Translations under genes and position numbers: made by a program
The notes under the pieces: generated by a model
What the model was told of the DNA's origin: nothing
Database searches by the model: none
The model's input: the letters and a program-made list of their open reading frames with translations, nothing else
NCBI GenBank assembly: GCA_944322615.1
Contig: CALUPH010000008.1
Location: forward strand, 7,003 to 71,002
Source: Candidatus Gastranaerophilales bacterium
GTDB lineage: Bacteria > Cyanobacteriota > Vampirovibrionia > Gastranaerophilales > Gastranaerophilaceae
DNA length: 64,000 bases
Direction: 5' to 3'
Part shown: one piece after another, positions 25,553 through 44,622 of the stretch
Layout of the letters: each line of letters begins with the position of its first letter
Numbering within the stretch: the first letter of the stretch is position 1

Positions 25553-26014
25553 ATGCCATTCAGATATAGATTACAAAAGGTACTTGATTTTAGGATAAGA
25601 AAGAAAGAAGAACAGCTTCAAGAAGTTCTAAAAGCAAAAAATGAGGTAGATAGAATTCAAAGATTAATAGATGAAAATAATGAAGAAATAGCAGGTGTTA
25701 TTAAAACAATGCGTTCTACCAATGATTTTCGGATGATGGATTCATATGATAAATATTTGAAGCATCTATATGAAAAAGGAGAAGAACTCGAAAAACAAAA
25801 GCAAGCAGCAATTGAAGTATTAGAAGAAGAAAAAAAGAAGCTTGTTGAACGGGAAAAAGAAGTGAAGGTTCTTGAAAAACATAAGGAAAAAGCACTCGAA
25901 CAATACAAAGAAGAAGAAAAACAAGCAGAAAACAAATTACTTTCAGAAGTAGCAGTCCAAAAATATTTTCAAAAAACGAAAGCAAGAAAAGAAGAAGAAG
26001 GCGAAGACGATTAA
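25553..26014 (+). CDS. fliJ: Flagellar export chaperone FliJ
   Basis: FRYRLQKVLDFR start, about 150 aa of charged coiled coil, and the position upstream of fliK-like and flgE-like genes. Confidence 0.7.
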   Translation: MPFRYRLQKVLDFRIRKKEEQLQEVLKAKNEVDRIQRLIDENNEEIAGVIKTMRSTNDFRMMDSYDKYLKHLYEKGEELEKQKQAAIEVLEEEKKKLVEREKEVKVLEKHKEKALEQYKEEEKQAENKLLSEVAVQKYFQKTKARKEEEGEDD

Positions 26015-26023
26015 AAAGGAATA

Positions 26024-26665
26024 ATGATGAAGATAGATACTCAAACAAAACAAAATGTTGAAAAAAAAGAAAATTTAGTGCAGATGCAGCCTGAAGATGC
26101 AGATGTTTTAGCTTCATCAAATCTTCCGTTTTCTGATGTTTTGACACAACAGTTAAATGGTATGGATGAAGATTCTGTTGGTAGTTCTACATTGAGTTCA
26201 ATTGGAATTGATTACAATTATGATTCTATTTCTATGAATTTTGAAGATGCTTTGTTTTTTGTAAATTTGACTCAAGAAGGTCAATTTTCTGTTGAAAGTA
26301 CTAAAACAGGAGAATTTAAGTCATTATTAAAACTCGATGTGGCACAGAATGTTGTTTCTTCAAAAACCGTAGAAGTTACTAACCAGCTAACTTCATTGAT
26401 AGAAAAGGCTCAAAAGACACAAAAACCGGTAAGAATTTCATTCGATAATGATGTTTCCGTAATTTTAAAAATTGATAAACATGGAAAAGTAACTGCTGAA
26501 TTTATTCCGGGCAGTATAGAAGTTGAAAATTACCTGCGAAATAATATTGCTTCTTTACGTCAAAAATTTGATGAACAAAATTTGCCTTATAACGATCTAT
26601 TTTATAGGCAAAATAATGGCAGACAAAATAGAAATAAGAATGAAAAAGAAAGAGGAGAGCAATAA
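26024..26665 (+). CDS. FliK-like flagellar hook-length control protein (short)
   Basis: C-terminal VRISFDNDVSVILKIDKHGKVTAEFIPGSIEVENYLRNNIASLRQKFDEQNL resembles the FliK Flg_hook domain pattern; position after fliJ. Confidence 0.5.
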   Translation: MMKIDTQTKQNVEKKENLVQMQPEDADVLASSNLPFSDVLTQQLNGMDEDSVGSSTLSSIGIDYNYDSISMNFEDALFFVNLTQEGQFSVESTKTGEFKSLLKLDVAQNVVSSKTVEVTNQLTSLIEKAQKTQKPVRISFDNDVSVILKIDKHGKVTAEFIPGSIEVENYLRNNIASLRQKFDEQNLPYNDLFYRQNNGRQNRNKNEKERGEQ

Positions 26666-27501
26666 TGCGTGACGCATTTATAAATGCTTTAAATACACAG
26701 AAATTAACAAGTGAATGGGTTAGCGATTTATCAGAAAACTTGGTGAATGTATATACTCCAGGATATAGGGAAAAGAAATTTACATTCAAAACATTTTTAG
26801 ACGGTTCTGTTGCAGAAACAAGATTAAGAAATGTAGGGCAAGGTAAATCATCACCCGGAACATCCGATGAAAATATATATTTGGAAGGTAGCGGGTACTT
26901 TGTTTTACGTAATGATAAAGGCAGAATTGTCTATACAAGACTCGGTGAATTTAAGTTTGACGGTGAAGGTGTCTATAGAAGTTCTGACGGACAAGCTGTT
27001 CAAGGCTATATTTTAAATGATAAAGGTGAAATAATGAATGGGGCAAAACCAGTTGATGCTGATTCGTTTGTTGATACAGCATTTGATGGTGGTGCTGCAT
27101 CTGTACCAACTACGAATATAAAACTTTGGATTGATCCAAGTAATGGTAAATATCTTGGTAAATACGAAGAATTTGAGTTTAAAGATGACGGAATATTATA
27201 TGGTAAAGCGGACGGCGGAAAAGTAATGACCCCGTTGTATAAGGTAGCAATAATAAATTTCCATAATCCTCAGATGTTGTATCAAGTTGCAGATGGACAG
27301 TTTATTGAAACCGAAGAATCAGGGAAACCTGTAGTCGGTAGAGGTGAAGTAAGAGGCGGATTAATAGAACTTTCAAATGTTGACTTTGACGCAAATACGG
27401 CTTATTATCAACAAGCTCAAATGCAATTAGAACTTGCAAATCAATTAATAAAGTCTCATAAACAATTGTTAGAAAATGCAATTGAACTTATGAGCAGTTA
27501 A
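26665..27501 (+). CDS. Flagellar hook/rod family protein (FlgE-like)
   Basis: N-terminal ...NLVNVYTPGYR rod/hook motif and a C-terminal LIELSNVDFDANTAYYQQAQMQLELANQLIK motif. ATGA overlap with the previous gene. Confidence 0.7.
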   Translation: MRDAFINALNTQKLTSEWVSDLSENLVNVYTPGYREKKFTFKTFLDGSVAETRLRNVGQGKSSPGTSDENIYLEGSGYFVLRNDKGRIVYTRLGEFKFDGEGVYRSSDGQAVQGYILNDKGEIMNGAKPVDADSFVDTAFDGGAASVPTTNIKLWIDPSNGKYLGKYEEFEFKDDGILYGKADGGKVMTPLYKVAIINFHNPQMLYQVADGQFIETEESGKPVVGRGEVRGGLIELSNVDFDANTAYYQQAQMQLELANQLIKSHKQLLENAIELMSS

Positions 27502-27538
27502 TGACAAATAATCTCGGAATGAGAAGTAACAATGTCAG

Positions 27539-27567
27539 AAGCTCTATTAAATGGAGCTTTTTTTTTA
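27539..27567 (+). terminator. Rho-independent terminator after the flagellar trio
   Basis: AAGCTC/GAGCTT stem with a 9-nt loop, followed by T9. Confidence 0.55.
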
Positions 27568-27617
27568 GCAATTTTTTTTATTTTCTTGTTTTCATATAGC
27601 CAAGGAAATAATCTATT

Positions 27618-28343
27618 ATGACTTTATCAATAAATAATAATCCTTTTCTGTATAATAATTCATATTCAAATAAAAACTCAGTTAAAAAAAATGATTTTGG
27701 ACAAAAATCAAAATCAGAAATTTTAACTGCAGAAAATGTTCCTTCAGATGCAATAAAGTCAAAATATTGTCCATCCTTTGGTAAATTCAGAAAAGTTGAT
27801 GATATTTCATTATTGGATAAAGATTCGGGATTTAATGTGAAAGCTTCTTTATGCAGAGAAAAAATAGGAGATTTTGTTTCTTATAAAATATTTGTAGATA
27901 AAAAAGAAGCTGGTTTTATGGATATGAACTGTACTTCTTTGTTTCCTGAGGGAGATTATGTTTTGACACAGCCAAATAATGTAATCCCTGAAATAACTCA
28001 TTTACGATCATTACTTGGTGAAAAATATTCAGGAATAGGTACAGCCCTTGTCAATGCTGCAGTTAAAGAAAGCAGAAAAAGAGGAAATGACGGGTGTTTG
28101 TTCCTAACAGCAGAAAAAGGTTATGCTCGTACTTTTTCTGATTATAGAAGTGATGAAAATCCAATTCCTTTTTATTATAAACTTGGGTTTGAAGCGGTAA
28201 ACCCTCAAATAGATAGTTTTATAAAGAAATGCATTGCAAAATCGCAATATAATATGCTTCCGGATTCAGCATTATTACTGTTAACTCCGGAAGCAATTGC
28301 ACAGAAAAATAAATATTTTGCTAAGAATTATACCTTTTGTTAA
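27618..28343 (+). CDS. GNAT-family acetyltransferase-like protein with low-complexity N-terminal region
   Basis: YSGIGTALVNAAVKESRKRG matches the GNAT motif A (R/Q-x-x-G-x-G/A); YYKLGFE near the C-terminus. Confidence 0.55.
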   Translation: MTLSINNNPFLYNNSYSNKNSVKKNDFGQKSKSEILTAENVPSDAIKSKYCPSFGKFRKVDDISLLDKDSGFNVKASLCREKIGDFVSYKIFVDKKEAGFMDMNCTSLFPEGDYVLTQPNNVIPEITHLRSLLGEKYSGIGTALVNAAVKESRKRGNDGCLFLTAEKGYARTFSDYRSDENPIPFYYKLGFEAVNPQIDSFIKKCIAKSQYNMLPDSALLLLTPEAIAQKNKYFAKNYTFC

Positions 28344-29748: not shown

Positions 29749-29858
29749 TCTTTTATAAATAGTAAACTAATGTAAAAATTATATTTTATAATGCATTTGA
29801 AGTAACAAAAAAAAATACGCTTACAATTAATATCTTTGAGATATTAGAAGGATATGCA

Positions 29859-32800
29859 ATGAAAATAAATAAGGCCGAAATGAATGTAAATGCTTTTAAA
29901 CCGAGATTTAAAAGCATAAGAACTGATAAAAAAACAGTCGAACAATTAAAAACAGGTGAAAAACCAATATTAGAAAATAATAGGCAAAATATATATGCAG
30001 CACTCAATAACTTAAGTTCTGCTTCAGACAGGACAAGTATTGAATTTCTTTTAGATGTAGCAAAAAATCTTGCATATGGACAAGGTGGAGATGATTCCGA
30101 ATTTAAAAGTTTTTTGGATGAGGAAGGGTTAACTCCGGAAAACAGAGAGAATACTGATTGGTCAAAAGTTTTAGATGATACAATAAGACGTGCATTATCT
30201 TCTTCTTTAGACAATGTTACGGATTTGGAAGCAGAATATAATGAAATTTTTAATACTAAAAAACCTTTAACAGAACAACAAAAAAAAATACTTGATTTAA
30301 GAAACGATTTTACTTCTTTAATAATAGGCGAAGATTCTTTAAAAGATTCTGAAACTTTGGCAAGAACAGCCAGAGTAAGAAAAAATCTTGATTATTTTAT
30401 TGCATCTTCCGAAATTCCTTTATCTCAAAAGCAAGAATGCCTTGAAAAATTTATTTTCTTTATGAGTGATGAATATAAAATCACTCCGCAATTGGAAGAT
30501 AAAAAATTACAAGTAATGGATGAAATGTTAAATGATATGATTGTTAAAACTCCTCAAGATGATGTTTTAACAATAAAATCCGTTGATCAACGCCAAAGTG
30601 GGATGTGTGCTGCCATTTCTATTTGTAGAAAAGCGATGGCATACGAGGATAAATCAAAATATGTTGATTTGATAATGGAAGAATTAAAAGATTCTCCGGT
30701 AATGTCTGTTTATGATGTAACAGAATTAGGCGCAGGTAAAAAAGTTGATATACCAAAAACAATAATAGATTATGATACCGCTATTGCAAAAGGTTATAGA
30801 ATTATTGATGCATCTGCTCATAATTGGATGCATAATGCTCACGCAAGCGGTGATGGAACAATTCAAACAGAATATTATGTTCCTTTTGATGAAGAAAATT
30901 ATGGAATATTTAACGATTCAAGTTGGTATCTTGGATTAGATCCAAAATATTCAAATGTAAAATCTTTGTTGATGTCTGTAATAAAAGAAAAAGAACTTTT
31001 GAAATCTTGTTATAGAGCAAGAAAAAATATGAGTGATACTTATAATAATCTTACAGCAGTTAAGAAAGAATATTATGATACTCAAAAGTCAGTTAATGGC
31101 AAATTAAGTGAAGTTTTTTCAGATATTTTCCCTGAAAAATCAAATGAGGAAATTTCAAGTTTAATTAAATCTTTAAAAGATTTTTACACAGGGAAAACTC
31201 CTGAAAATGGTCAAAATGTTCCTTCTAAGTTGCCAAAGGATGAAAAACAAAGAATAATTGCTGATTTTGTTATTTCATCTGTACCTGATATTACAGATTC
31301 TCAAAAAGAGAAAATAGTTAAAAATGCTGTTGTATTATTTGCTATGCTTGATGAGTATAATAGAAGTGAACTCCAATTAAAAAAACTAAAAAGTTTTAGT
31401 TCTCCAAGAAGCAAATATTTGTTTAATAAAAAATTATATAATGCAGCTGCAGCTCATAGAATTGCTGTTGAATCTGATGTAAATATGCCTGATGGTATTG
31501 TAAGATTTGAACGATTATCAGGATTACCCCCTAGAGATATACAAATTTCTAATTATTTAAAGTCCATAAAGTCAGGAATAAACTCTGCTAGTGTAAGACA
31601 AAGATTTATTGACGATAAAGGTAATATCCCAACTTCTAAAACACTAGAGGCAGATTTATTGTCTGATACTATAAAATTAGAATCTTTTATACCAAAAGAA
31701 CTTGATTCTATTACAAAGACATTATTTGAAAAATCGGTTACAGATTTAGTTATAACTATATTTGAAAATATTGCCCAAAATGTTAAAGAGGGTGATCGTG
31801 AAGCATTGGAAAATGTTAAAGTAACAATGGGCATAAAAGGTGACAAGCATGATGTTACAGAAAAGCTTAATAAATGGGTTCAAAAACTTTCTTCAAATCC
31901 ATCTAATGAAGAAGTATTAGACGGTATAAGACTTTTAGGCTATGAAGACAGAATGCATTTTGTGTCTGTATTTATGTCTCATTATATGCAATCCTTACAA
32001 GAAGGTATTTCTGAAGAACAATATAATAAACTTGTTAAAACTTTTGGCGGTGAAGATAAAGTTGGCTTGGGTATAGAGTCTCAACGTGAAAAATTTGAAG
32101 CATTGACAGAAGAATATAATTCAATACTTGAAAAATGGCAAATACCTTCAGCAAGAACTCAAATATTAAAACAGCTTGAAAAACAACATTTTATTGTAAG
32201 CCGTACCAAACTTGATATGTTGAAAAATCATTTTTCTTCAATAGAACAAGCAATGGTTGCTAATGAAAAAATCGAGGATTCAAAACAAAGACAAAAAGCG
32301 AATAGTAAATTATATCAGTTTACAAGTGAAGAAACAGAAATTTTTGAATCAATAAAAAAATCTCTATCAAAGATGAAAAAATATTGTGAAATGGAATATC
32401 AGAATTTAAACAATATTTTATATGATGCATTAGAGGATCAGTATTCTAATATTGGTATGTTAAACGGCCAGTTTTGGGTAAGAGAAGAAGGATCTTCAGG
32501 ATTAGCTGCGAATGAACAAATTAGAATTATTGAACAGATGACAGGTAAACCATATCATATGGAAACCGATGCAATAGCTGCCGCCGAAAAAATAAAAAAA
32601 GGAAACGGTAGTGGTATACAGTGTTTAAGTGTTGATGATTCTGATTATGCTTTTCATGCTCAGTATGTTCCCTCGGTTACTACAGAAACATTTACAAATC
32701 CGATTACAGGTAAAAAGATTATTCAAGATGTAATGTGGACAGATAATTCTTGGGGAAAAGCAGAAAAAGAATATTTCTGGAATGGCCGTAATGGATTCTT

Positions 32801-35669
32801 ATATACTGATTACGGTAATGGTTATGGCTGGAAAGATGGATTTATATTAGCTGATGATTACAAAATTGGTCTTCCTGTCAAAGATATTTATGGCGCAATA
32901 GGATACAATAAAGAAGATGGGGATAAATTTGGTTTATTCACAGATGTTGTGCTTCCGGGTGCACCAATTGATTTATACCAAAAACTATATAAAATGTTTG
33001 GTTACATTTTTAATATTGATGAAGGTAAAAAATATTATGCTGCATTAGAAAATGCTATTTCGAGCGGATATAAGATTAAAATAGATGAGCTTGAAGGATT
33101 AGATTCTGTTGCCGAAGCAAAATTAGAAATGCTTGCAAAACGAATTGACAAAGAATTGAAATCAGAAGCGGATTTTGAAAATTTACCTGATGATGACGAA
33201 CTAAAATTTGTATTTAAAAAGTTAGCAGTATATATGTCTACAAATAATCCAATGTTGGCAGATACTGTATTCTCTGTTAATAATAATAAGGATTTGGAAA
33301 CAGTAAAAGATGAAATTTTCCAAGAACATTTAGATGTATTTTCTTCTATCATTGGGAAATCAGATGAAACATTAGAAACATTATATAATTATTCATATGA
33401 TAAATTAAATTCTATATTTGATGAAATAAAAACAACATATGGTCTTGAAATTTCAGAACCTCAAAGAAAAGCAATTCTTGAAGGAATATTCTTTAATGAA
33501 GATGCGTTAGCAAAACATAATGGTACATTATCAGGTCTTGAAAAATATTTTGAAGAGCAGATAGAAAGTAATGCAATTGCTAATATTAAAGATCAAGCTG
33601 CTTTAGATTATTTTATTACGAATGCTAAAAAGATAATATTACAAAGTATAGATGAAAGAGTAAGAATAAAATCTTTAGATAGTTTGCCTATTGTTAATTC
33701 GCCATTAAAAGATGAATTTATAGCTGCCGTTGATAAATATTTGAATCCTTCTTCAGATGAAGAATTATTAACATTGATTCAAGGTTTGCAAATGGCAGAC
33801 TATGATACAGTTGATAAATTCTTTGAAGTGCTTCAACCGGAAGATATAGGTCTAAAGGAAAGAAAACCATATGATTATGTAAAAATGTATTTATCCGGAG
33901 ATTCACCAGTAAGTAAAGCATTCAGTGAGTTGATTTCATCTGAAGAGATATATAAAAACTTACCTGCTTCAAATGATGAACAAGAAGGTTCATCTCCTGA
34001 GGAGTTGTATAGAAGTTTATATGTTAAACTTTCGGAAATGGATGTACAAAAATACATAAAAGCATTTAAAGCAGAGGCTTTTCAAAAATATAAGGTAAGA
34101 CAAGCATTTCCTGAACCTGTTGTTATTTCGGATGAGTCTATTTCTAAAATAGTTGATGGTATGTATTCTTCTATAATTGAACATGTTGATAGTATAGAAA
34201 GTAGTAAATATGTTTATGAAATATTATCAAAATATCATGAAATAAATGATAAGTTTTTAACTCGACCATTATTTACTTCTTTATTAAATAGACAAGATGT
34301 TGTACCTGATGAAGAAAGTAAAGCTGTGTTTAATTCCTTTATTTCTGAAATACTTGAACTTCAGGAATTATCAGGTCTTGATCCATCATTTGAAATTATA
34401 AATGAGCCTTTAAATAAATTAATTAGTGTACTAAAATCATCTGATACTAAGTTTGAAGGCAGAGTTATAGGGCCTGTTTTAAATGAAATAATTTCAATAT
34501 TCTCAGATTTAGAGTCTACCGGAATTACAACCGATAGGTTTGTGCAATTGAAACAGGAAGAAATATCAGCTTTAAAATATAATATTCAGTTAATGGTAAA
34601 TACTAATATTGAACCAAAGTATAGAGATGAAGTTCTAAATGAAATCTATAGACTAATTGATATGTATAGAAAAGGTTACGATGAAGAAACTTTATTATTA
34701 GAAAAAGAAAAAATAAAGGATTTGGTCATAACAAAACATATTGTAAAAAATCCAACGGTCTTGTTGAAAGAATGTGTAAGATTGCTTCAAGATGGAAAAC
34801 AAAATACTGATGAGTATGAAATCCTTAGAGCATATTTGGAAACTGCTCTTCAAGTAGCACAACAGACAAAAATTCAATATAAATTAGTACAAAACCAGCA
34901 TGAAGCAATAAGTTCAAAAACAAAAGATATGCTATCTATGTTTTGTGTAACAATGAAAGACGGTAAAAGAGAAAACATGGATTCGGAAATCGGTATGTTG
35001 TACTTGATTGAACAATTGAAAAATACAGGTGATAATTATACTATATTGAACTTATTTTTAGAACAATCAGGTCTGTCACAGCAGGCATTAAATGCATTGA
35101 TTAATAATTTCGAAATACAAAAAACTAATGATTTAGTTCAAGAAAAAGCAGAAGAAATTAAAATTGATTTAGCTGCATTAGACGAGTTGGCTTCATTAGT
35201 TGGAAAGTATACTGAAATAAATAAAGGGAATATAAAATCTTTGCCTGATTCTGTTGAACAATTCAGATTATATATTGAGCGTAAGCTAAAAGGTAAAGAA
35301 AATATTTCAGTATTTTCAAAATTTGTAAATTATATTGATTCAATACAATATACAGATGCATTGAAGGATACTAACTCAACAATGATTGAGCCATTGACAA
35401 AACAAATTATAGAAGATGCACTTCAATATGTAGCTGAAGATATTAATTCACAAATGAAATATATTTCAGATATATCTTCTATGTTAAAAGAACGAATAGA
35501 ATTAATTGCATCAATACGAGTTCCTTCTGAAAGTGAAGCTTATAAAAATAGGACAGACTTCTTCCATAAATATGAACAAGTACAAAATTATATTTCAGAA
35601 GAATCTAAGAAAATATTTGATGCACTGGGAAATTCTGAATTTTTGTCAGCACAAATGATTCCTTGCTAA
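29859..35669 (+). CDS. Giant (1936 aa) protein with split C1B (aminopeptidase C / bleomycin hydrolase-like) cysteine peptidase motifs and a long helical C-terminal extension
   Basis: Uninterrupted 5.8-kb ORF with an AGGA RBS 6 nt upstream. DQRQSGMCAAIS (Cys250, codon 30606-30608), FHAQYV (His933, 32655-32657) and DNSWGK (Asn963, 32745-32747). No signal peptide or TM segment seen. Confidence 0.8.
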   Translation: MKINKAEMNVNAFKPRFKSIRTDKKTVEQLKTGEKPILENNRQNIYAALNNLSSASDRTSIEFLLDVAKNLAYGQGGDDSEFKSFLDEEGLTPENRENTDWSKVLDDTIRRALSSSLDNVTDLEAEYNEIFNTKKPLTEQQKKILDLRNDFTSLIIGEDSLKDSETLARTARVRKNLDYFIASSEIPLSQKQECLEKFIFFMSDEYKITPQLEDKKLQVMDEMLNDMIVKTPQDDVLTIKSVDQRQSGMCAAISICRKAMAYEDKSKYVDLIMEELKDSPVMSVYDVTELGAGKKVDIPKTIIDYDTAIAKGYRIIDASAHNWMHNAHASGDGTIQTEYYVPFDEENYGIFNDSSWYLGLDPKYSNVKSLLMSVIKEKELLKSCYRARKNMSDTYNNLTAVKKEYYDTQKSVNGKLSEVFSDIFPEKSNEEISSLIKSLKDFYTGKTPENGQNVPSKLPKDEKQRIIADFVISSVPDITDSQKEKIVKNAVVLFAMLDEYNRSELQLKKLKSFSSPRSKYLFNKKLYNAAAAHRIAVESDVNMPDGIVRFERLSGLPPRDIQISNYLKSIKSGINSASVRQRFIDDKGNIPTSKTLEADLLSDTIKLESFIPKELDSITKTLFEKSVTDLVITIFENIAQNVKEGDREALENVKVTMGIKGDKHDVTEKLNKWVQKLSSNPSNEEVLDGIRLLGYEDRMHFVSVFMSHYMQSLQEGISEEQYNKLVKTFGGEDKVGLGIESQREKFEALTEEYNSILEKWQIPSARTQILKQLEKQHFIVSRTKLDMLKNHFSSIEQAMVANEKIEDSKQRQKANSKLYQFTSEETEIFESIKKSLSKMKKYCEMEYQNLNNILYDALEDQYSNIGMLNGQFWVREEGSSGLAANEQIRIIEQMTGKPYHMETDAIAAAEKIKKGNGSGIQCLSVDDSDYAFHAQYVPSVTTETFTNPITGKKIIQDVMWTDNSWGKAEKEYFWNGRNGFLYTDYGNGYGWKDGFILADDYKIGLPVKDIYGAIGYNKEDGDKFGLFTDVVLPGAPIDLYQKLYKMFGYIFNIDEGKKYYAALENAISSGYKIKIDELEGLDSVAEAKLEMLAKRIDKELKSEADFENLPDDDELKFVFKKLAVYMSTNNPMLADTVFSVNNNKDLETVKDEIFQEHLDVFSSIIGKSDETLETLYNYSYDKLNSIFDEIKTTYGLEISEPQRKAILEGIFFNEDALAKHNGTLSGLEKYFEEQIESNAIANIKDQAALDYFITNAKKIILQSIDERVRIKSLDSLPIVNSPLKDEFIAAVDKYLNPSSDEELLTLIQGLQMADYDTVDKFFEVLQPEDIGLKERKPYDYVKMYLSGDSPVSKAFSELISSEEIYKNLPASNDEQEGSSPEELYRSLYVKLSEMDVQKYIKAFKAEAFQKYKVRQAFPEPVVISDESISKIVDGMYSSIIEHVDSIESSKYVYEILSKYHEINDKFLTRPLFTSLLNRQDVVPDEESKAVFNSFISEILELQELSGLDPSFEIINEPLNKLISVLKSSDTKFEGRVIGPVLNEIISIFSDLESTGITTDRFVQLKQEEISALKYNIQLMVNTNIEPKYRDEVLNEIYRLIDMYRKGYDEETLLLEKEKIKDLVITKHIVKNPTVLLKECVRLLQDGKQNTDEYEILRAYLETALQVAQQTKIQYKLVQNQHEAISSKTKDMLSMFCVTMKDGKRENMDSEIGMLYLIEQLKNTGDNYTILNLFLEQSGLSQQALNALINNFEIQKTNDLVQEKAEEIKIDLAALDELASLVGKYTEINKGNIKSLPDSVEQFRLYIERKLKGKENISVFSKFVNYIDSIQYTDALKDTNSTMIEPLTKQIIEDALQYVAEDINSQMKYISDISSMLKERIELIASIRVPSESEAYKNRTDFFHKYEQVQNYISEESKKIFDALGNSEFLSAQMIPC

Positions 35670-35710: not shown

Positions 35711-35986
35711 ATGAAAAAGATTATAATTTTGTCTTGTACTTTTATCTTTTGTGCATTGACGATTTTGCCTTCTTATGCGGTAAACATAGGTACCTATAAG
35801 ACTGAAACCGAATATGGTCTATTGGACGGATTCAAGGTAAATTGGAAACGCAAAGATAAAAGCCAGCCATTTATTGAACCACGAGAAGAATCATCAAAAA
35901 AGGAAAAAGAAAAAGAATTAAATTATTATAAAGAATCAGAATACGAGCGTACAAAATTTATGTATGATGGTAAAGCTATTCTTTAG
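35711..35986 (+). CDS. Small secreted hypothetical protein
   Basis: 91 aa with signal peptide MKKIIILSCTFIFCALTILPSYA and a GGAG RBS. Lies 41 nt after the giant gene and before a terminator. Confidence 0.55.
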   Translation: MKKIIILSCTFIFCALTILPSYAVNIGTYKTETEYGLLDGFKVNWKRKDKSQPFIEPREESSKKEKEKELNYYKESEYERTKFMYDGKAIL

Positions 35987-36051: not shown

Positions 36052-37797
36052 TTATAATATGTTTGAAGTAACGGTGAAGTGGAATCTACAAGTATCACGG
36101 TCTCTGCTGTTTGCATAATCTGGTAAACGCTTACCGATTGGGAAGCCCCAATACATATTTGCAGAAATATATTTAGTTAATTTAACAACAATACCAGGAC
36201 CTGCACTCATTAAATAATCAGCACTGCCATCAATAAATCTGTCACCGAACCAGCCGAAATCATAGAAACCGGCAAGTTGTATACTGTCACTAATAAATGC
36301 GTATTTTTCAGGTAGTAAAGCCTTTAATCCAGGAATTGGCATTCTGTATTCAAAGCTAGCTGTAACACCATAGTCACCAATACGGAAACCTTCATCATAA
36401 CCTCTTACACTAGCTATACCACCAAATTGCATAGCTTCTGATGCATATAAGTGTCTGTTAGCGTATTGTCCGTTAACTTGTAAAATAGCCAAATGATTTA
36501 ATGGTAAAACTTGTAAACGCGCAGCACTTGCATTTAATTTTACGAAATTGTTGCTGGACATATCTCTTGCTTTGTTATAGTCAGAAGCATCAATAGGAAT
36601 ACCGCCTGCAATACCACCATTAAATAACCATCTTCCATAGTAGTCATCTTTAACATCTGTTAAAGTAGCTCTTAGAACTCTTGTTCTGTATGCGGAATTT
36701 AACTCAGGGAAAGCACCTGAAGTCATTTCAGTGTTACGCATATCTAAAGTGATATCACCATATAATCTAAAGTCTTCGCCTTGAGCTAATCTTCTTGAAA
36801 CACCAACGAATACATCATGTGATTCACCTTTTAGATTTAAATATTTTAAAGATTTTCCAAGTCTTACATTTGAATAAGAATAACCAACATTCAATCTTGT
36901 GTCATTTGCTGCTATAGGTAAAGAGTACATACCACCAACACCAAGAGAACGAGATGATAATGCAACTGTACCCATTAAGGTATCACCATGGCCTGTTACG
37001 TCGTGTAAACCGGCATATAATACACCTCTTTGTGTTCCGATTAATTCTCTACCTTGGTTATCATATCTAATATCTAAATTGAGAGGAAATCTGTCTTTGA
37101 CATCTAATGTTACGTCTGAAAATTCTTCTGATTCTTCATTATCAGCGAAAGAAACAGCACCCTTCATGTATTCTTCAGTATTCATTTCTGTTAAAGCGTT
37201 ACGAACATCTTTAACATTTAAAATTTTACCGGGTTCGATATTATTATCTTTTAGATAATGTTTATTAAGGTAAGAAGCTCTTTCCCATTTTCCTGGATTG
37301 ATTTCAACGTTACCATATTTACCTTCCAAAATTTTAATTTCAACAGATCCGTTTTTAACTTTTTGCGGAGGAAGATAAGCAATTGTTGAAATGTAACCTT
37401 TTGCTTGATAATAATCAGTAATATCATTAGCAGACATAATCAGGTCATTGATAGTTACTTCTTGACCTATTTTAAAGTCAACCAATCTCATTAAAACATA
37501 AGTTGGAAATACCGTATTTCCTGTTATGTTAATGTTTTTAAGTTTAAAAGTAACCTGTTCGGTGTTAAGAAGTTCCATTTTTTGACGAACTTCTTCTTCA
37601 ACAACAGCAGGATCTTTTGTTTCTTCATATTTGGTTTTAGCTTGATATTGTTTTGCTTGGATAAAGTTTGTATTATCAATCAAACCGGCATCGTAACTAC
37701 CTTGATTAACAAACGTACTTCCGTCAACAGCAAATGCGCTAATCCCTATGATTGAGAAAGCACAAGCTAAAGTTGTTTTTACAAGTATGTTTTTCAT
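36052..37797 (-). CDS. Two-partner secretion outer-membrane transporter (TpsB; ShlB/FhaC/HecB family)
   Basis: Signal peptide. POTRA region FKLKNINITGNTVFP...YYQAKGYISTIAYLPPQKVKNGSVEIKILEGKYG. Conserved loop-6 VRGY motif (GGIASVRGYDEG). Beta-barrel-like C-terminus ending in an aromatic-rich strand. Confidence 0.85.
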   Translation of the reverse strand: MKNILVKTTLACAFSIIGISAFAVDGSTFVNQGSYDAGLIDNTNFIQAKQYQAKTKYEETKDPAVVEEEVRQKMELLNTEQVTFKLKNINITGNTVFPTYVLMRLVDFKIGQEVTINDLIMSANDITDYYQAKGYISTIAYLPPQKVKNGSVEIKILEGKYGNVEINPGKWERASYLNKHYLKDNNIEPGKILNVKDVRNALTEMNTEEYMKGAVSFADNEESEEFSDVTLDVKDRFPLNLDIRYDNQGRELIGTQRGVLYAGLHDVTGHGDTLMGTVALSSRSLGVGGMYSLPIAANDTRLNVGYSYSNVRLGKSLKYLNLKGESHDVFVGVSRRLAQGEDFRLYGDITLDMRNTEMTSGAFPELNSAYRTRVLRATLTDVKDDYYGRWLFNGGIAGGIPIDASDYNKARDMSSNNFVKLNASAARLQVLPLNHLAILQVNGQYANRHLYASEAMQFGGIASVRGYDEGFRIGDYGVTASFEYRMPIPGLKALLPEKYAFISDSIQLAGFYDFGWFGDRFIDGSADYLMSAGPGIVVKLTKYISANMYWGFPIGKRLPDYANSRDRDTCRFHFTVTSNIL

Positions 37798-38157
37798 CGT
37801 TCCACTCTCTATATAACTTTAAATAAATATACCACTATTTTATATATTATATATAATACTACATAAAATTAAAATTATATCAATTTTATTATACTTACTA
37901 TTCCTTTGTTTTGCATAATTTAAACATATGAAATCCGAACAAAAAAAAATTTGCTTTATAGAAACTTAAAAAATAACATATCTTAACATATTGTTCCTGT
38001 TTCATTTCAATGATTGTACAATTTCTTTAAAGTTTAAAATTAATAATAAGTTTTATTAACATTTGATATAATTGTGGCAAATAATTTTTTTAGGGATTTT
38101 AAAGCTAGCATAACAATTTTTCAAATGTGCATTTTATATCAAAGAATGGAGAATAGG

Positions 38158-39305
38158 ATGAGAAAATTATTGAGTGCAGCAGTTGCTTTTGGTGTTTTAG
38201 CCTCAACATCTTTAATGCCGATTGCCTATGCAGATGTTGCAGTGAATGCGTTACCAAGTTTGGATAATGCAATTAATGCAAATGTAACAACAAACGGTTC
38301 AAATATGAACATACAAATTCAAGGTGGGCAAGGTAGTCTAGGATCATTACAATGGAATGATTTCAATGTGGGAAAAGATGCAAGTGTAAATTACGAATTT
38401 ACAGCACACAACCAAACAGCATTAAATAAGGTTAATGCAACTGGAGGTATTTCTCAAATATATGGACAAATAACTACATCAGGCTGTGCTGGTTGCGGTT
38501 ATGACGCTACAGGTAAGGTTATATTAATCAATCCAAATGGTGTTTTATTTGGAGATGGAGCAAATGTTAATTTGAATTCATTCACTGTATCAACAATGGA
38601 TGGTGAATATGATAATGTTAATCATCAACTTCAGTTAAACAAAGGTGCTGACCAAAGTGATTTTGGTATTGTGGTTGAAAATGGTGCAAAAGTACATGGT
38701 GATAAGAATGTAACATTTGCATCAAATAACATCACTTTATATAATGGTTCAAAAATTTCAACAAATGTAGGTCCTAATGTTGCAGATACATCATATGGAA
38801 AAGTAAAATTGGTTACTGCTGATGGTGTAAACTTCTCATATTATAACAATGGTGCAATAAAAGAAATTTCTGATATTAAAGGTTCTACTGATAAAATGTT
38901 CATTTCAATTAATGGAGATATACAATCAGGAAATATTGATGTAAGAAATTATTCGACTAATGAAGCAAGTGAAATAAACTTAAAAGGTGCTACATTAAAA
39001 GCAACAAAAGCTGTAAAAGGAAATGATGGAAATATTTGGTTAACAGCATCAAACAAAATTGTAGCAGAAGATACAACATTTGAAACTGCAAATTATTCAG
39101 ATGAAGCAGCATCAAGAGAAGGCGGAAATGTAAGATTTTTAGCAGGCAAGAAAGTTTCAGTAGGAACAAGTAAAATCAATTCTGTAGGAAATGTTGATGT
39201 TACTTCTCAATATTATGATGTAGTATTAGATAAGACAGAAGTAGCAGCAGCTAAAGATGTTAATGTAAAAGCTGCAAATATTGCTTCTATACAAAATGGT
39301 TCAAA
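38158..39305 (+). repeat. Duplicated tpsA 5' segment, copy 1 (about 1.15 kb)
   Basis: Aligns by eye with 40911-42055. The 3' third (about 38941-39305) shows only a few substitutions per 100 nt. Confidence 0.85.
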
Positions 39306-40608
39306 TGTATCAGGAAAAAATGTTTCTTTAAATGGTAAAGCAAGAGCTCAAGTTAATAATTCTGCTGTTACTGCAAATGAAGATGTAAATATAGAATCTG
39401 AAGAGTTAGCTTGGACTGAAAAAGCAGAAATTAATGCAGGAAAAGATATTAATGTTAAAGCTACAAAGGGTTCTTTGTTGTTAAATAATTCATTGATGGC
39501 TGCTAAAAATAATATTAACTTGTCATCTAAAGATTCTGTATCTTCACAAAAATTGGCAGGTACTACATTTACAGCTGACAAAGATGTTAATGTGGAATCA
39601 ACAGAGGACAGTGTAATATTAACAAGTACATCTCAGTTCCAACCTAAAGCTTCTTTGAATTTGAATGCAGCAAAGAATGTTGAAATTAATTCAAAAGGAG
39701 ACTTAACAACTGAAAAAACAAACATTACTGCCGGTGAAAATGTTTTCTTAACATCTGCTGAAGGTTCAGTAAATGTTAAGGATAGCACAAAATTCTTATC
39801 TGGTAAAAAAGTATATATTCAAGGTGCAAATGATGTTAGTACAACAGGCACTGTTGATATGAATAATATTCAAACAAATATTCAAGCTGGCAATGATGTC
39901 GATGTTAATTTGGCAAATGTTGGAAACAGACAAAATGGTTTAATTGCAAAAGCTGGTCATAATATGACAGTTACAACAGACGGCACTTTATCAGTATCAA
40001 GTTTGATTTCAGGTAATGATATGACTCTTAATGCCAATAAAGTAATTGCAGGTCTTCCATATACTGATGAGACAAAATTACCTGAAGATACAGTAAGTGA
40101 ACGTTCATATATTGAAGTAGGCGGTGAGTTTACATCAAATGTTGCAAATGATAATTATGAAATCACAGCATCTGGTGAACCTACTAATGATGGTAAATAT
40201 AACCAAAAACATCATATTCAATACGGCGAAGATGAAAAAATATTATTGGTAAACAAAAGACCAAGAGATAATAATGTAACAGATCCTGATTTGGGCGATA
40301 ATGACAATGGTAATGAAATAGATCCAATAAAACCTGGAGATATTCCAACTGATCCGGATCCTTCAGAACCTGGCGACGGTGGTAACACTGGTGATGGTGG
40401 AGATGGCGGTAACACTGGCGACGGTGGTAACACCGGTGACGGCGGTGATGGCGGTAACACTGGTGACGGTGGCAATACAGGTGATGGCGAAGGCTGTGAT
40501 GATACTCCAAACGGAGATAATGTAGAAAACGAACAAACTCCTGGCTTATTATCAACTGGCGATTTGTTAAAATATTCAGTTCAAACAAATGATAAAAAAC
40601 AATTCTAA
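38158..40608 (+). CDS. TpsA-type exoprotein 1 (haemagglutination-activity/TPS domain, beta-helix repeats, Gly/Asp-rich tail)
   Basis: Signal peptide MRKLLSAAVAFGVLASTSLMPIAYA. TPS-domain motifs WNDFNVG, ALNKV, ILINPNGVLFG. GGAGA RBS before the ATG at 38158 (the track start at 38074 is a GTG extension). Confidence 0.85.
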   Translation: MRKLLSAAVAFGVLASTSLMPIAYADVAVNALPSLDNAINANVTTNGSNMNIQIQGGQGSLGSLQWNDFNVGKDASVNYEFTAHNQTALNKVNATGGISQIYGQITTSGCAGCGYDATGKVILINPNGVLFGDGANVNLNSFTVSTMDGEYDNVNHQLQLNKGADQSDFGIVVENGAKVHGDKNVTFASNNITLYNGSKISTNVGPNVADTSYGKVKLVTADGVNFSYYNNGAIKEISDIKGSTDKMFISINGDIQSGNIDVRNYSTNEASEINLKGATLKATKAVKGNDGNIWLTASNKIVAEDTTFETANYSDEAASREGGNVRFLAGKKVSVGTSKINSVGNVDVTSQYYDVVLDKTEVAAAKDVNVKAANIASIQNGSNVSGKNVSLNGKARAQVNNSAVTANEDVNIESEELAWTEKAEINAGKDINVKATKGSLLLNNSLMAAKNNINLSSKDSVSSQKLAGTTFTADKDVNVESTEDSVILTSTSQFQPKASLNLNAAKNVEINSKGDLTTEKTNITAGENVFLTSAEGSVNVKDSTKFLSGKKVYIQGANDVSTTGTVDMNNIQTNIQAGNDVDVNLANVGNRQNGLIAKAGHNMTVTTDGTLSVSSLISGNDMTLNANKVIAGLPYTDETKLPEDTVSERSYIEVGGEFTSNVANDNYEITASGEPTNDGKYNQKHHIQYGEDEKILLVNKRPRDNNVTDPDLGDNDNGNEIDPIKPGDIPTDPDPSEPGDGGNTGDGGDGGNTGDGGNTGDGGDGGNTGDGGNTGDGEGCDDTPNGDNVENEQTPGLLSTGDLLKYSVQTNDKKQF
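40372..40494 (+). repeat. In-frame tandem repeat encoding (GDGGNT)/(GDGGDGGNT) units
   Basis: PGDGGNTGDGGDGGNTGDGGNTGDGGDGGNTGDGGNTGDGEG. An 18-nt unit nested in a 45-nt higher-order unit, locally GC-rich. It creates spurious antisense ORFs. Confidence 0.9.
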
Positions 40609-40669: not shown

Positions 40670-40910
40670 GTGTAACAAATTATTAATAAAACTATATTAA
40701 TTTGTAAATTTATCAGACTAAAAGTTTTTTATATAGTATATATAGTTATAGAATTTTAAGAGAGATTTTAATTTAAATACAGTAAAAATTTGTAACAATA
40801 AAAAATAAATTGTAAACAATTTTAATGTATTTAGCAATTTTTTTTTTTAGAGTACTTACAATTAGTATAAAAGAAGAATTATTAACATGAAAAATAAAGG
40901 AAAGAAGAAA

Positions 40911-42055
40911 ATGAAAAAACTTTTAAGCACAACAATCGCGGTAGGTATTTTCGCTTCAATGAGTATTGCTCCTGTATTTGCTGATGTTTCAGCTAATGCA
41001 TTACCAAATCTTAATAATGCAATAAATGCAGATGTAACAACAAACGGTTCAAATATGAACATTCAAATCCAAGGCGGACAAGGTAGTCTTGGAACATTGC
41101 ATTGGAATGATTTTAACGTAGGAAAAGATGCAAGTGTAAATTATGAATTTTCTGCACATAACCAAACAGCATTAAATAAAGTTGATGCAACTGGTGGTAT
41201 TTCTCAAATATATGGTAAAATTACTACTTCAGGATGTGCAGGTTGCGGTTATGACGCTACAGGTAAAGTTATCTTAATCAACCCAAATGGCGTTTTATTT
41301 GGAGATGGCGCAAATGTTAATTTGAATTCATTCACAGTATCTACAATGGATGGTGAATATGACAGTACTACAAATCAACTTCATTTGAACAAAGGTTCTA
41401 ATCAAAGTGATTTTGGTATTGTAGTTGAAAATGGTGCAACAGTTCATGGCGATAAGAACGTGACATTTGCATCAAATAATATCACTTTATACAATGGTTC
41501 AAAAATTTCAACAAATGTAGGTCCTAATGTTGGAGATACATCTTATGGTAAAATCAAATTGGTTACTGCAGATGGTGTAAATTTCACATATTACAATAAT
41601 GGTGCAGTAAAAGAAATTTCTGATATCCAAGGTTCTACTGATAAAATGTTTATTTCTATCAATGGTGATTTAAAAGCCGGAAATATTGATGTAAGAAATT
41701 ATTCAACTAATGAAGCAAGTGAAATAAACTTAAAAGGTGCTACATTAAAAGCTACAAAAGCTGTAGAAGGAAATGACGGAAATATTTGGTTAACAGCATC
41801 AAACAAAATTGTAGCAGAAGATACAACATTTGAAACAGCAAATTATTCTGATGAAGCAGCATCAAGAGAAGGCGGCAATGTAAGATTTTTAGCCGGTAAA
41901 AAAGTTTCAGTAGGAACAAGCAAAATCAATTCTGTAGGAAATGTTGATGTTACTTCTCAATATTATGATGTAGTATTAGACAAGACAGAAGTAGCAGCAG
42001 CTAAAGACGTAAATGTAAAAGCTGCAAACATTGCTTCAATTCAAAATGGTTCAAA
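40911..42055 (+). repeat. Duplicated tpsA 5' segment, copy 2
   Basis: See copy 1 at 38158-39305. Confidence 0.85.
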
Positions 42056-42761
42056 AGTAAAAGCTAAAAATATTAAAGTTAAATCTGATAAAGATGCTTG
42101 GGCTTCTAATTCAAGCTTGGATGCTGATTTAATCACCATTGAAGGTGGTAATGATGTTGTAGCATACAATGTTGATTTGAATAATAAGAAGACTGTAATT
42201 AATGCAGGTAATGATGTTGATATCAATGTTAAAAATGTTGGTGAAAGACAAAATGGTTTAATTGCAAAAGCCGGTCACGATATGAAAATTAAAACTGATG
42301 GTGCGTTATCTGTTTCAAGCTTAATTTCAGGTAATGATATGACTATCGATGCAAAAGAAGTTATTTCAGGTTATGATAAAACTTCAAACATCCTTAGAGA
42401 AGAAGGTGACAGTGCAGATCGTGCATACATTGAAGTTGGCGGTAAATTTACATCAAATCCTTCTTATGAAGTTACTGATTCTGCAGACTTAACTGCTGAT
42501 GGTAAATATAATCAAAGACATCATATTCAATATGGTGATGGTTCAGAAAAAATCTTGTTAGTTACAAAACTTCCTTATACTCCACCAATTGATCCAAACG
42601 TACCGGAAGTTGAAGACGATCAAGCAACAATGTTAAACAAATTACCAAGACAACCTGAAGTATTCAACAATACAACAGTAATAAACGATGGAAGAACAAC
42701 TTTTGTGGATGTATTCGCTGCAGCTAGTCAAATAGAAATTGTTGAAGACGAAGAAGAATAA
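40911..42761 (+). CDS. TpsA-type exoprotein 2 (paralog of tpsA1 with a different central cassette and C-terminal tail)
   Basis: Signal peptide MKKLLSTTIAVGIFASMSIAPVFA and the same TPS motifs. AAAGGAAAG RBS before the ATG at 40911. Confidence 0.85.
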   Translation: MKKLLSTTIAVGIFASMSIAPVFADVSANALPNLNNAINADVTTNGSNMNIQIQGGQGSLGTLHWNDFNVGKDASVNYEFSAHNQTALNKVDATGGISQIYGKITTSGCAGCGYDATGKVILINPNGVLFGDGANVNLNSFTVSTMDGEYDSTTNQLHLNKGSNQSDFGIVVENGATVHGDKNVTFASNNITLYNGSKISTNVGPNVGDTSYGKIKLVTADGVNFTYYNNGAVKEISDIQGSTDKMFISINGDLKAGNIDVRNYSTNEASEINLKGATLKATKAVEGNDGNIWLTASNKIVAEDTTFETANYSDEAASREGGNVRFLAGKKVSVGTSKINSVGNVDVTSQYYDVVLDKTEVAAAKDVNVKAANIASIQNGSKVKAKNIKVKSDKDAWASNSSLDADLITIEGGNDVVAYNVDLNNKKTVINAGNDVDINVKNVGERQNGLIAKAGHDMKIKTDGALSVSSLISGNDMTIDAKEVISGYDKTSNILREEGDSADRAYIEVGGKFTSNPSYEVTDSADLTADGKYNQRHHIQYGDGSEKILLVTKLPYTPPIDPNVPEVEDDQATMLNKLPRQPEVFNNTTVINDGRTTFVDVFAAASQIEIVEDEEE

Positions 42762-42873: not shown

Positions 42874-44622
42874 ATGAATTTAAAATTATGTTGTTTAATT
42901 ATGATACTTACAATTGGTTCTTCTGCTTTTGCTGATGCGATAATAAATCGCAGTCCAACTAGAAGTAGTGCAATACAAAATTCAAGTATTATATTTAGTA
43001 ATTATGATAGCATTTATAAAGACGAGTCTTATAATCCTGCAATTAAAGAAATACAAGACAAAATAAAGAAAAATCCAAATGATTATATTTTATATGTTTC
43101 ATTAGTCGATTTATATATAAAATCAAAAGATTATGATAATGCATATAATGAATTAGTATTCCTGGCAAATTTAGCAAGGCAAAATAAATTAAATTCAACA
43201 GTAATGAATTATGTAAATACCGTGTATGAACATAATAAAAAGTCTGCAAAATATTCAAGAAACAAAGGACCACTTTGCTTAGATTTGTCTTTATTGGCAT
43301 TTATATTAGATGATAAAGAGAGTGCTGAGTCATATATAAATATAGCCTCTAATTATTCATTGAATTCTAATTTATTATCAAATACTCTTAAAATAATTTT
43401 TGATAGCACAGGAAATTTAGAAAAAGCGGTATCTGTATGTGGAAAAGTGATTCTTAAAAATCCAAATGATATTGATTTACGAAAACTGAAAGCCTCATAT
43501 CTTGTTCAAAGTCAGAATTTTGATGCAGCTATTATTGAATATGCAAGTATATTAGATATAAATCCAAATGATGAGGATTCAAAATATTCAATATATAATT
43601 TATTATCACAAAAAGGTGCAGATGAAAAAGAGATAATTAAACAAATATATAAAACAGATAAACCGAATTATGAAATTGTATATTCAGAATTTGCAGATAT
43701 GCTATTAAACAGAGAAGACTTTGATGCTGCTGAACATTACGCTGATATTTTAGTTAATAGTTTTCCAAATAATGCAAAGGGATATATTTTATTATCTGAA
43801 ATTTATATGAAAAAGGGAAAACTTAGAGAGTCTTATGATGTTTTAACAAAAGCAAGAGACAAAGCTGATAGTAATGAATTAATTGCAAAATATAATGTTT
43901 TGCTGGCAAAGTTGTCTGATGAACCTGTAAAAGAGGCAAATTCCTTAATTTCTGCAGGATTATATCAACAGGCACTTGATGTTTTAGACAGCGCAAGCCA
44001 AGAAAATTTATATGTTATATTAACTCAGGCAAGAGCTAATTATCTTTTGAATAATAAGCAGGCAACTTTTGAACTTTTAAATAAATCAATGATTTTATAT
44101 CCAAAAAATTCAGATGTTTATTGTGCTTTTGGTTACATATATTTGCAAGAAAATGATTTAGAAAGTGCAAGAAAGTATGTTAATAATTCATTAAAGATAA
44201 ATCCAAAAAATAAAACAGCTTTAGACTTACAAGATTTACTTAATAGTGCAGAATCACAGAAGTATATAAGTTCAATAATTTCTTCTTACGAAGCCCAAAA
44301 TTATACAGAATCTATGCGATTGGTTGATGAAGCACTTAAAATAAATAAAAAAGATTCTACCTTATATTTTTATAAAGCATTAAACTATATAGCACAAAAT
44401 AATTATGCAGCTTCTACTGCACATTTATATAAATGTTTGGAACTGGATAAAAATAATATACAGGTTTATTTTTATTTAGGGCTTGCTTTTGATAATTTAT
44501 CCGAGTCTGAAAATGCTTTGACGTACTATAGAAAGTTTATAGAATTATTGCCAAAAGATGATTATGGTGAAAGTGAAAAACTTGATTATGCAAAAGCCCG
44601 TATAAGTAAATTGCAAAATTGA
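42874..44622 (+). CDS. Secreted TPR-repeat protein
   Basis: Signal peptide MNLKLCCLIMILTIGSSAFA, then many 34-aa TPR-like repeats (Y..A...Y...L..NP pattern). Confidence 0.8.
   Translation: MNLKLCCLIMILTIGSSAFADAIINRSPTRSSAIQNSSIIFSNYDSIYKDESYNPAIKEIQDKIKKNPNDYILYVSLVDLYIKSKDYDNAYNELVFLANLARQNKLNSTVMNYVNTVYEHNKKSAKYSRNKGPLCLDLSLLAFILDDKESAESYINIASNYSLNSNLLSNTLKIIFDSTGNLEKAVSVCGKVILKNPNDIDLRKLKASYLVQSQNFDAAIIEYASILDINPNDEDSKYSIYNLLSQKGADEKEIIKQIYKTDKPNYEIVYSEFADMLLNREDFDAAEHYADILVNSFPNNAKGYILLSEIYMKKGKLRESYDVLTKARDKADSNELIAKYNVLLAKLSDEPVKEANSLISAGLYQQALDVLDSASQENLYVILTQARANYLLNNKQATFELLNKSMILYPKNSDVYCAFGYIYLQENDLESARKYVNNSLKINPKNKTALDLQDLLNSAESQKYISSIISSYEAQNYTESMRLVDEALKINKKDSTLYFYKALNYIAQNNYAASTAHLYKCLELDKNNIQVYFYLGLAFDNLSESENALTYYRKFIELLPKDDYGESEKLDYAKARISKLQN

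Follow-up and report, generated by a model that had tools for sequence, protein, structure and literature searches.

Papain-like cysteine peptidases are found in several architectures that invite comparison with the gene described here. In the C1B peptidases aminopeptidase C (PepC) and bleomycin hydrolase, the C-terminal tail sits in the active site and sets C1B specificity. In the ubiquitin-specific protease (USP) deubiquitinases of family C19, inserted domains hundreds of residues long part the Cys-box from the His-box within a single papain-like fold, while the herpesvirus large tegument protein UL36 (C76) carries a small cysteine protease module in a mostly helical scaffold of more than 200 kDa. 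Here we analyse a 64,000-nucleotide stretch (the window) of contig CALUPH010000008.1 from a member of the Gastranaerophilales, common but uncultured gut relatives of cyanobacteria, and within it a single giant gene. We consider it reasonably probable that this gene represents a new and deeply diverged family of C1-like (clan CA) cysteine peptidases, housed in a giant lineage-specific helical protein.

The gene is an open reading frame (ORF) of 1,936 codons without internal stop, and because some 8% of random codons are stops at 30% GC, a random origin of such a frame can be excluded; its GC content (0.28–0.30) equals that of the flanking DNA. An earlier note on this DNA, made from the letters alone, had described an uninterrupted 5.8-kb ORF with a good ribosome-binding site, an encoded protein lacking a signal peptide or transmembrane segment, and a widely split PepC/bleomycin-hydrolase-like triad. 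The ORF and the ribosome-binding site are as described (Table 1), and the highest 19-residue Kyte-Doolittle mean is 0.93, giving no signal peptide or transmembrane segment by this simple hydropathy test, as distinct from a dedicated signal-peptide predictor. Residues 243–254 read DQRQSGMCAAIS and include Q244 and C250 (Cys-box DQRQSGMC, the Cys lying in SGMCAA), residues 931–937 (AFHAQYV) include H933, and residues 956–978, QDVMWTDNSWGKAEKEYFWNGRN, include N963 and W965 in the DNSWG of VMWTDNSWG. C250 and H933 are thus 683 residues apart, and H933 and N963 30 residues apart, in a protein with nine cysteines in total. The note had placed these motifs exactly to the residue, and its PepC strings were equally sound: the aminopeptidase C of PDB 4k7c_A has NQKQSGRCW and THAMV...KWKVENSWG...KGYF, with a measured Cys-His spacing of 288 against the note's roughly 290.

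The presence of these residues is more than chance. Alignments of 50, 99 and 41 sequences, reaching ∼26% identity, show no variation at Q244, G248, C250, H933, D962, N963, W965 or G966. Counted family-wide, with hidden Markov models (HMMs) of the two motif-bearing segments run over all 241 proteins retrieved, Q244 is kept in 217/217, C250 in 218/218, H933 in 216/216, W965 in 215/215 and N963 in 214/215, the sole exception being a 216-aa fragment. The Cys, His and Asn positions singled out in the earlier note are therefore conserved in all but that fragment, and the catalytic set is kept among ∼215 homologues whose divergence reaches ∼25% identity. Conservation along the protein peaks at residues 201–360 and 841–1000 (0.6–0.7, compared with 0.3–0.5 elsewhere), averaging 0.63 in the two segments we call the N-lobe (228–362) and C-lobe (862–1040) and 0.43 in the rest. 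These alignments point to strict selection on a split papain-type catalytic apparatus, whose invariant residues make an active enzyme probable.

Among 5.8 billion proteins searched there were 347 homologues, mostly 1,780–1,970 aa long; those with a named source are all called "hypothetical protein" and mostly labelled Candidatus Gastranaerophilales, and none of the 347 carries a precomputed Pfam domain. A relative is encoded by 190 GTDB species genomes, the titles of which name Gastranaerophilales, Melainabacteria and "Cyanobacteria bacterium" metagenome-assembled genomes (MAGs) from gut and rumen, in addition to bins titled "bacterium" or "uncultured bacterium" and some "uncultured Muribaculaceae". 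The last label, borne by the GTDB-representative MAGs with giant-gene loci L013, L016, L026, L038, L040, L049, L054 and L059, some of which share the gene order of the window, is probably wrong. The window protein is the founding member of an unannotated family whose taxon-named sources are all Gastranaerophilales or Melainabacteria (Vampirovibrionia) of gut or rumen, and literature searches found no published description of it. Where one assembly yielded two loci these were two halves of one gene, and we infer that the giant gene is single copy per genome. No phage or plasmid relatives were found by tblastn.

The division of the domain is as constant as its residues. When the two lobes of the window protein, spliced into a single sequence, were used as a phmmer query against 1.84 billion cluster representatives, 148 proteins matched, the full-length ones (1.7–2.5 thousand residues) in two stretches and the short ones being contig-end fragments. 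There was no canonical C1 peptidase among the 148, and no relative with an uninterrupted domain among the 1.84 billion representatives, the shortest Cys-His spacing being 461. Across 198 family proteins this spacing is 461–777 aa (median 682), and an inter-lobe insertion of 283–596 aa is present in 184/184 homologues. One candidate, P0230, matched in 14 stretches and was rejected as an unrelated repeat protein. A few members from metagenome contigs (P0134, P0174, P0205, P0207, P0211 and P0216) reach 2.1–2.5 thousand residues, with shorter Cys-His spacings of 474–530 and no informative extra Pfam domains; by a simple pattern search P0134, P0207 and P0211 keep Q-x5-C, HAQY and DN[ST]WG, and the remainder show part of the set. 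These longer members may come from another Vampirovibrionia lineage. One contig of this set, L081, has a GC content of 0.39, compared with 0.30 in the window. For the most divergent members of the family, contig neighbours gave no hint of a taxonomic place.

An AlphaFold 2 (AF2) model of residues 1–1100, built with 40 homologues, has a mean predicted local distance difference test score (pLDDT) of 86.4 and a predicted template-modelling score of 0.78, the latter hinting at a settled overall arrangement. In the model C250 directly precedes a helix (251–263/265–276), which is followed by short strands to residue 357. Residues 362–869 are all helices, the first of them 62 residues long (362–423), and residues 899–1033 are β-rich, with strands at 932–937, 939–946 and 953–961; H933 lies within the first of these and N963 just past the last, the two being joined by a 30-residue β-hairpin. 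As modelled, a nucleophile at a helix N-terminus with His and Asn on a β-lobe is the arrangement of the papain fold and of clan CA. In Foldseek searches of the PDB with this model, falcipain-2/3 were the sole matches with a probability above 0.5 (nine listed chains, seven of them at 0.89–0.98), at target-normalised template-modelling scores of 0.27–0.35, a result that supports the modelled β-rich C-lobe and not the domain as a whole. The falcipains plausibly rank first because of the His-Asn spacing of 30, which is also that of falcipain-2 (H174 and N204). The earlier note's picture of a papain-like site is supported in that papain-family proteases are the only high-probability matches, with Cys modelled at the start of a helix and His and Asn on the β-lobe; no C1B structure is among the best 50 matches.

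The remainder of the protein is predicted to be helical. The C-terminal scaffold, modelled as residues 1020–1936 (pLDDT 85.3), is all-α, as the earlier note had supposed of the C-terminal half, and finds no structural match in the PDB, all Foldseek matches having a probability below 0.1; a search for internal repeats found none. Matches of the two models to long helices (ABC transporters, SMC and tape-measure proteins; C-terminal model against the PDB, N-terminal model against a viral structure library) were discarded as non-specific, with probabilities of at most 0.5. The viral library gave the N-terminal model only such matches, with one tegument protein at rank 41 and a probability of 0.09. 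Helical parts make up ∼80% of the protein and the papain-like domain ∼16%, and the helical remainder (∼1,600 aa) bears no enzymatic signature. The inter-lobe insertion (363–861) has the lowest conservation and acidity of all segments in the layout, with a pI of 8.2 in the window protein; it is net positive in 109/184 homologues, a weak trend that we do not use as evidence.

In profile comparison the lobes score higher against C1B than against C1A. The C1B profile was built from 18 sequences (two from the PDB, one further PepC sequence that matches 4k7c at 2e-150, and 15 C1B genes from IMG/VR contigs) and the C1A profile from 84 (papain, identical to 1khp_A, three cathepsins, and 80 sequences from IMG/VR loci); the hhalign queries were 199-sequence family alignments of the lobes, with 200 column shuffles as the null. 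The N-lobe scored 29.6 against C1B (P 0.0014, Prob 17.9%, reached by 0/200 shuffles) and 21.5 against C1A (2/200), the C-lobe 20.4 (P 0.053, Prob 1.0%, 7/200) and 19.6 (3/200), and the joined lobes 31.3 (P 0.003, Prob 10.7%, 0/200) and 21.7 (6/200). Shuffled columns averaged 14.6 ± 2.8 (N-lobe) and 16.1 ± 2.7 (joined lobes) against C1B, which puts the observed scores at z values of ∼5.4 and 5.6. The best C1B alignment pairs Q244, C250, H933, N963 and W965 with Q62, C68, H356, N378 and W380 of PepC, and KDGF with QKGYF, although its middle part is unreliable; the C1A alignment has Q, C and NSWG correct and His out of register. Extending the N-lobe to residue 165 brought no gain in C1B score, and comparing the spliced profile by hhalign with individual papain or PepC sequences gave no information (Prob <1%). 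At the level of sequence the similarity to C1B appears real, weak and in register, leaning towards C1B over C1A, and lies far below the level at which membership could be claimed.

A number of observations weigh against a C1-like peptidase. Searches of Pfam and NCBIfam with the whole protein, each lobe and the N-terminal region gave no peptidase match, with none to Peptidase_C1_2 (PF03051) or Peptidase_C1 (PF00112) even at E<10; sub-threshold matches to NIP7 and IHF were dismissed as noise. Neither phmmer nor hmmsearch against the PDB, whether the query was the protein itself, the full family profile or the spliced two-lobe profile, recovered a C1 chain, matching designed helical repeats, calmodulin and Fab chains only. 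The HH probabilities are low, at 10–18% for the N-lobe and joined lobes against the 18-sequence C1B profile. The falcipain matches have poor E-values (0.05–0.4, for a query of 1,100 residues) and mostly align 153–185 columns (230 in one case), roughly one lobe. The pLDDT falls to 59–71 near residues 231–250, and homology of the N-lobe is tentatively suggested by the motif, the position of the helix and a weak profile score. Finally, none of the genomic contexts compared revealed a partner gene kept throughout the family.

Many of the same data speak to the possibility that the protein is a genuine C1B aminopeptidase, a PepC/bleomycin-hydrolase member with added domains. The resemblance of DQRQSGMC to NQKQSGRC and of DNSWG to ENSWG, hhalign scores above those for C1A with all catalytic positions in register, the shared lack of a signal peptide or propeptide together with few cysteines, and the extra sequence that C1B enzymes also have between Cys and His would all fit. 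However, PF03051 is unmatched by the whole protein and by the isolated lobes, the family HMM finds none of the 16 full-length bleomycin hydrolase or aminopeptidase C sequences present in the PDB, HH probabilities do not exceed 18%, and C1B structures are missing from the best 50 Foldseek matches. Also absent is the C-terminal tail of C1B (...PWDPMGALA), which does not vary among three C1B sequences; some 900 aa come after the C-lobe instead, and conservation is lowest (0.18) at the very C-terminus of the protein (...SAQMIPC). We regard C1B membership as unlikely. For the PepC/bleomycin-hydrolase-like triad of the earlier note, the motifs are in register with PepC and the profile scores lean to C1B over C1A, while no curated model, whether Peptidase_C1_2 or Peptidase_C1, is matched.

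If the protein is instead a divergent C1-like peptidase, as we favour, its two lobes would come together to form one active site. There Cys250, at the N-terminal end of its helix, would be the nucleophile and His933, on a β-strand, the general base; Asn963 would orient His933, Trp965 would shield the His-Asn pair, and Gln244 would form the oxyanion hole. The lobes are parted by the predicted helical insertion of 283–596 residues and flanked by predicted helical parts of ∼230 (N-terminal) and ∼900 residues (C-terminal). These helical parts would most likely restrict or direct the access of substrates to the active site, a single-chain compartmentalisation analogous to the homo-hexameric barrel of C1B enzymes, in which the active sites face a central channel. 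The whole, a protein of ∼220 kDa, is probably soluble and cytoplasmic.

Two conserved segments outside the lobes stand out. Residues 1404–1420 (KAEAFQKYKVRQAFPEP, including KYKVRQAFPEP) form the most conserved block outside the lobes, with R1414, A1416, F1417 and P1418 nearly invariant. In the C-terminal model, which is without the protease domain, model residues 393–405 (1412–1424 of the protein) are predicted as an extended coil, and pLDDT falls to 52–53 over model residues 381–400. The segment could, hypothetically, act as an intramolecular active-site plug or pseudosubstrate. At its boldest, the reading becomes one of a self-compartmentalising protease in which insertion and C-terminal scaffold wrap the C1-like site and 1404–1420 plugs it, one chain doing the job of the PepC hexamer and tail in a new MEROPS-level family whose named members are only non-photosynthetic cyanobacterial relatives; this version is speculative, and we think it rather doubtful. 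At the other end of the protein, residues 1–17 are disordered in the AF2 model and lead into a conserved F17-K-S-x-R21-T-D23, part of a motif, F-[KES]-[SG]-x-R-[TE]-D-[KR]-N, that even the most divergent members retain; R21 does not vary in the alignments of 41 and 50 sequences and is at least 90% conserved in that of 99. This motif is a candidate targeting, degron or autoregulatory peptide. Other conserved N-terminal blocks are RENTDW (96–101) and NLDYFxASSEI (176–186).

A papain fold is not confined to peptide-bond hydrolysis: in clan CA and related families it also supports isopeptidase or deubiquitinase-like cleavage, deamidation, transglutamination and acyl transfer. The sequence is too divergent from C1 for specificity to be transferred, and the giant scaffold would suggest one or a few specific macromolecular substrates, either of which would suit such other thiol chemistry. 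Yet the full C1 set typical of C1 peptidases is kept (Gln six before Cys, N-S/T-W-G with its Trp, and a trailing G-[FY]), and the sole confident structural neighbours are peptidases, which leaves a chemistry of this kind improbable in our view.

The genomic neighbourhood bears on a further possibility, an exported effector or toxin protease that acts on host or competitor proteins and leaves the cell through neighbouring two-partner secretion (TPS) genes or another route independent of a signal peptide. The locus is chromosomal, with the housekeeping neighbours panBC, CofD, RelA/SpoT and RNase E/G. On its upstream side the giant gene has LamB/YcsF, three weak flagellar-like ORFs, a 241-aa ORF, LUD and a β-carbonic anhydrase, and on its downstream side a 91-aa ORF whose product bears a signal peptide, together with TpsB, two TpsA genes and a tetratricopeptide repeat (TPR) protein; this order is kept on both sides among homologues of at least 35% identity. 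The size of the protein, the small secreted protein that follows it, the adjoining TpsB, TpsA and TPR genes, and the disordered first 17 residues with the motif behind them are what an effector might show. In 42/44 loci (giant-protein identity ≥35%) the 91-aa ORF lies 22–86 nt 3' of the giant gene and shares its strand; it is possibly, and perhaps probably, co-transcribed with the giant gene. The mature N-terminus of its product hardly varies, even as the giant protein drops to 35% identity. It has no Pfam or PADLOC match. The TPS cluster is near the giant gene in 26–33 related loci, including that of a homologue of 31% identity (L001).

Against export, the giant protein itself has no signal peptide, TPS domain or RTX-type repeats, and it is ortholog-like and of similar length in 190 species, unlike a polymorphic or horizontally moving toxin. 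Since the unrelated upstream genes (LUD, carbonic anhydrase and LamB/YcsF) are kept about as often as the TPS genes, the linkage appears to be lineage-wide synteny and not a functional module. In the clade of 25–30% identity none of the window neighbours is kept and the 91-aa ORF is not adjacent, which suggests that the giant gene can be kept without TPS genes. We consider an exported effector quite improbable. PADLOC defence models also gave no match. Very improbable, lastly, is a structural cytoskeletal or scaffold pseudoenzyme with relic lobes, which would suit the ∼80% of helical scaffold lacking an enzymatic signature, since catalytic residues are normally lost from pseudoenzymes, whereas ∼215 sequences diverging to ∼25% identity retain Q, C, H, N and W, and conservation along the protein is highest in the lobes.

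Table 1. Coordinates within the window of the giant gene, its parts and its neighbours.
Feature	Position	Strand	Residues	Basis or remark
Shine-Dalgarno-like AGAAGGA	29846..29852	+		6 nt 5' of the giant-ORF ATG; read from sequence
Giant ORF	29859..35669	+	1–1936	ATG start, uninterrupted, 1,936 aa, 221.5 kDa, pI 4.9
N-terminal helical region	29859..30539	+	1–227	AF2 secondary structure, pLDDT, invariant columns
N-terminal segment	29859-29930		1–24	First ∼17 residues disordered in the model, then conserved motif
N-lobe, papain-like domain	30540..30944	+	228–362	Conserved Q/C, AF2, hhalign
Gln244 codon, putative oxyanion hole	30588-30590	+	244	Invariant
Cys250 codon, putative nucleophile	30606-30608	+	250	Invariant
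All-α inter-lobe insertion	30945..32441	+	363–861	AF2, conservation profile
C-lobe, papain-like domain, β-rich	32442..32978	+	862–1040	Conserved H/N/W, AF2, Foldseek
His933 codon	32655-32657	+	933	Invariant
Asn963 codon	32745-32747	+	963	In DNSWG
Trp965 codon	32751-32753	+	965	In DNSWG
C-terminal all-α scaffold	32979..35666	+	1041–1936	AF2, Foldseek, repeat search
Conserved block outside lobes	34068..34118	+	1404–1420	Conservation 0.74
Small 91-aa ORF with signal peptide	35711..35986	+		42 nt past the giant-gene stop; signal peptide MKKIIILSCTFIFCALTILPSYA, mature start VNIGTYKTETEYGLLDGFK
TPS cluster	36052-37797; 38074-40608; 40887-42761; 42874-44622	-; +; +; +		ShlB/FhaC-type TpsB, two short TpsA with TPS domains (844, 624 aa), TPR protein
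Flagellar-like ORFs and 241-aa ORF	25553-28343	+		Three small ORFs, then the 241-aa ORF

Two further features of the neighbourhood deserve mention. The three small flagellar-like ORFs have sub-threshold FliJ/YscO-like and FliK hook-length-like matches and an FlgE/F/G D1 domain, and the 241-aa ORF that follows them has no match; all four are kept upstream of the giant gene in ∼31 loci, with the LUD and β-carbonic anhydrase genes in between. In a divergent clade (25–27% identity; L066, L067, L069, L070 and L077) an opposite-strand gene ∼46–116 nt downstream begins MENIVSSY...IKVIGVGGGGGNAVNRM, and by eye its product looks like FtsZ.

Fold and chemistry are familiar; what is new is an unannotated family in which a C1-type site is split by 283–596 residues in a non-repetitive helical protein of ∼220 kDa. 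To standard HMM annotation a papain-type site this split and drifted is invisible, and it takes conservation, structure prediction and in-register profile alignment to expose it. A 220-kDa protein in at least 190 species genomes is an energetically costly, unannotated lineage marker, and C250 offers a target for activity-based probes in gut metaproteomics. Should the scaffold indeed form a cage around the active site, a new regulatory design for a C1-type protease would result.

Of the systems introduced above, UL36 is alike in carrying a small module in a very large helical protein, but its protease is N-terminal and contiguous where that of the giant protein is split, and no sequence or structural similarity was detected between them. 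The USP deubiquitinases are eukaryotic and differ in motifs and fold details, whereas the giant protein is bacterial, has C1-type motifs and is interrupted by a non-repetitive helical array without a known domain. Among C1A peptidases, falcipain-2/3 (PDB 1yvb, 6ssz, 3bpf, 3bwk and 3pnr) are the structural matches above a probability of 0.5, and the giant protein has a long His-Asn β-hairpin of 30 residues; C1A enzymes, however, have a secretory signal, an I29 propeptide, a CGSCW box and conserved disulfides, none of which is found in the giant protein with its SGMCAA box and nine Cys, and they give lower hhalign scores than C1B, with His out of register. With C1B the giant protein shares the order and spacing of Gln six before Cys in x-Q-[KR]-Q-S-G-x-C, then H-A, [DE]-N-S-W-G and a later G-[FY], as well as the lack of a signal peptide, propeptide or disulfide-type Cys pattern. 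C1B enzymes have an active-site tail that the giant protein is without, and they too carry extra sequence between Cys and His, with a spacing of 288 in PepC compared to 134 in papain and 461–777 in the giant family. In C1B, finally, the domain is the whole enzyme of ∼440 aa, whereas in the giant protein it is internal and makes up ∼16% of 1,936 aa.

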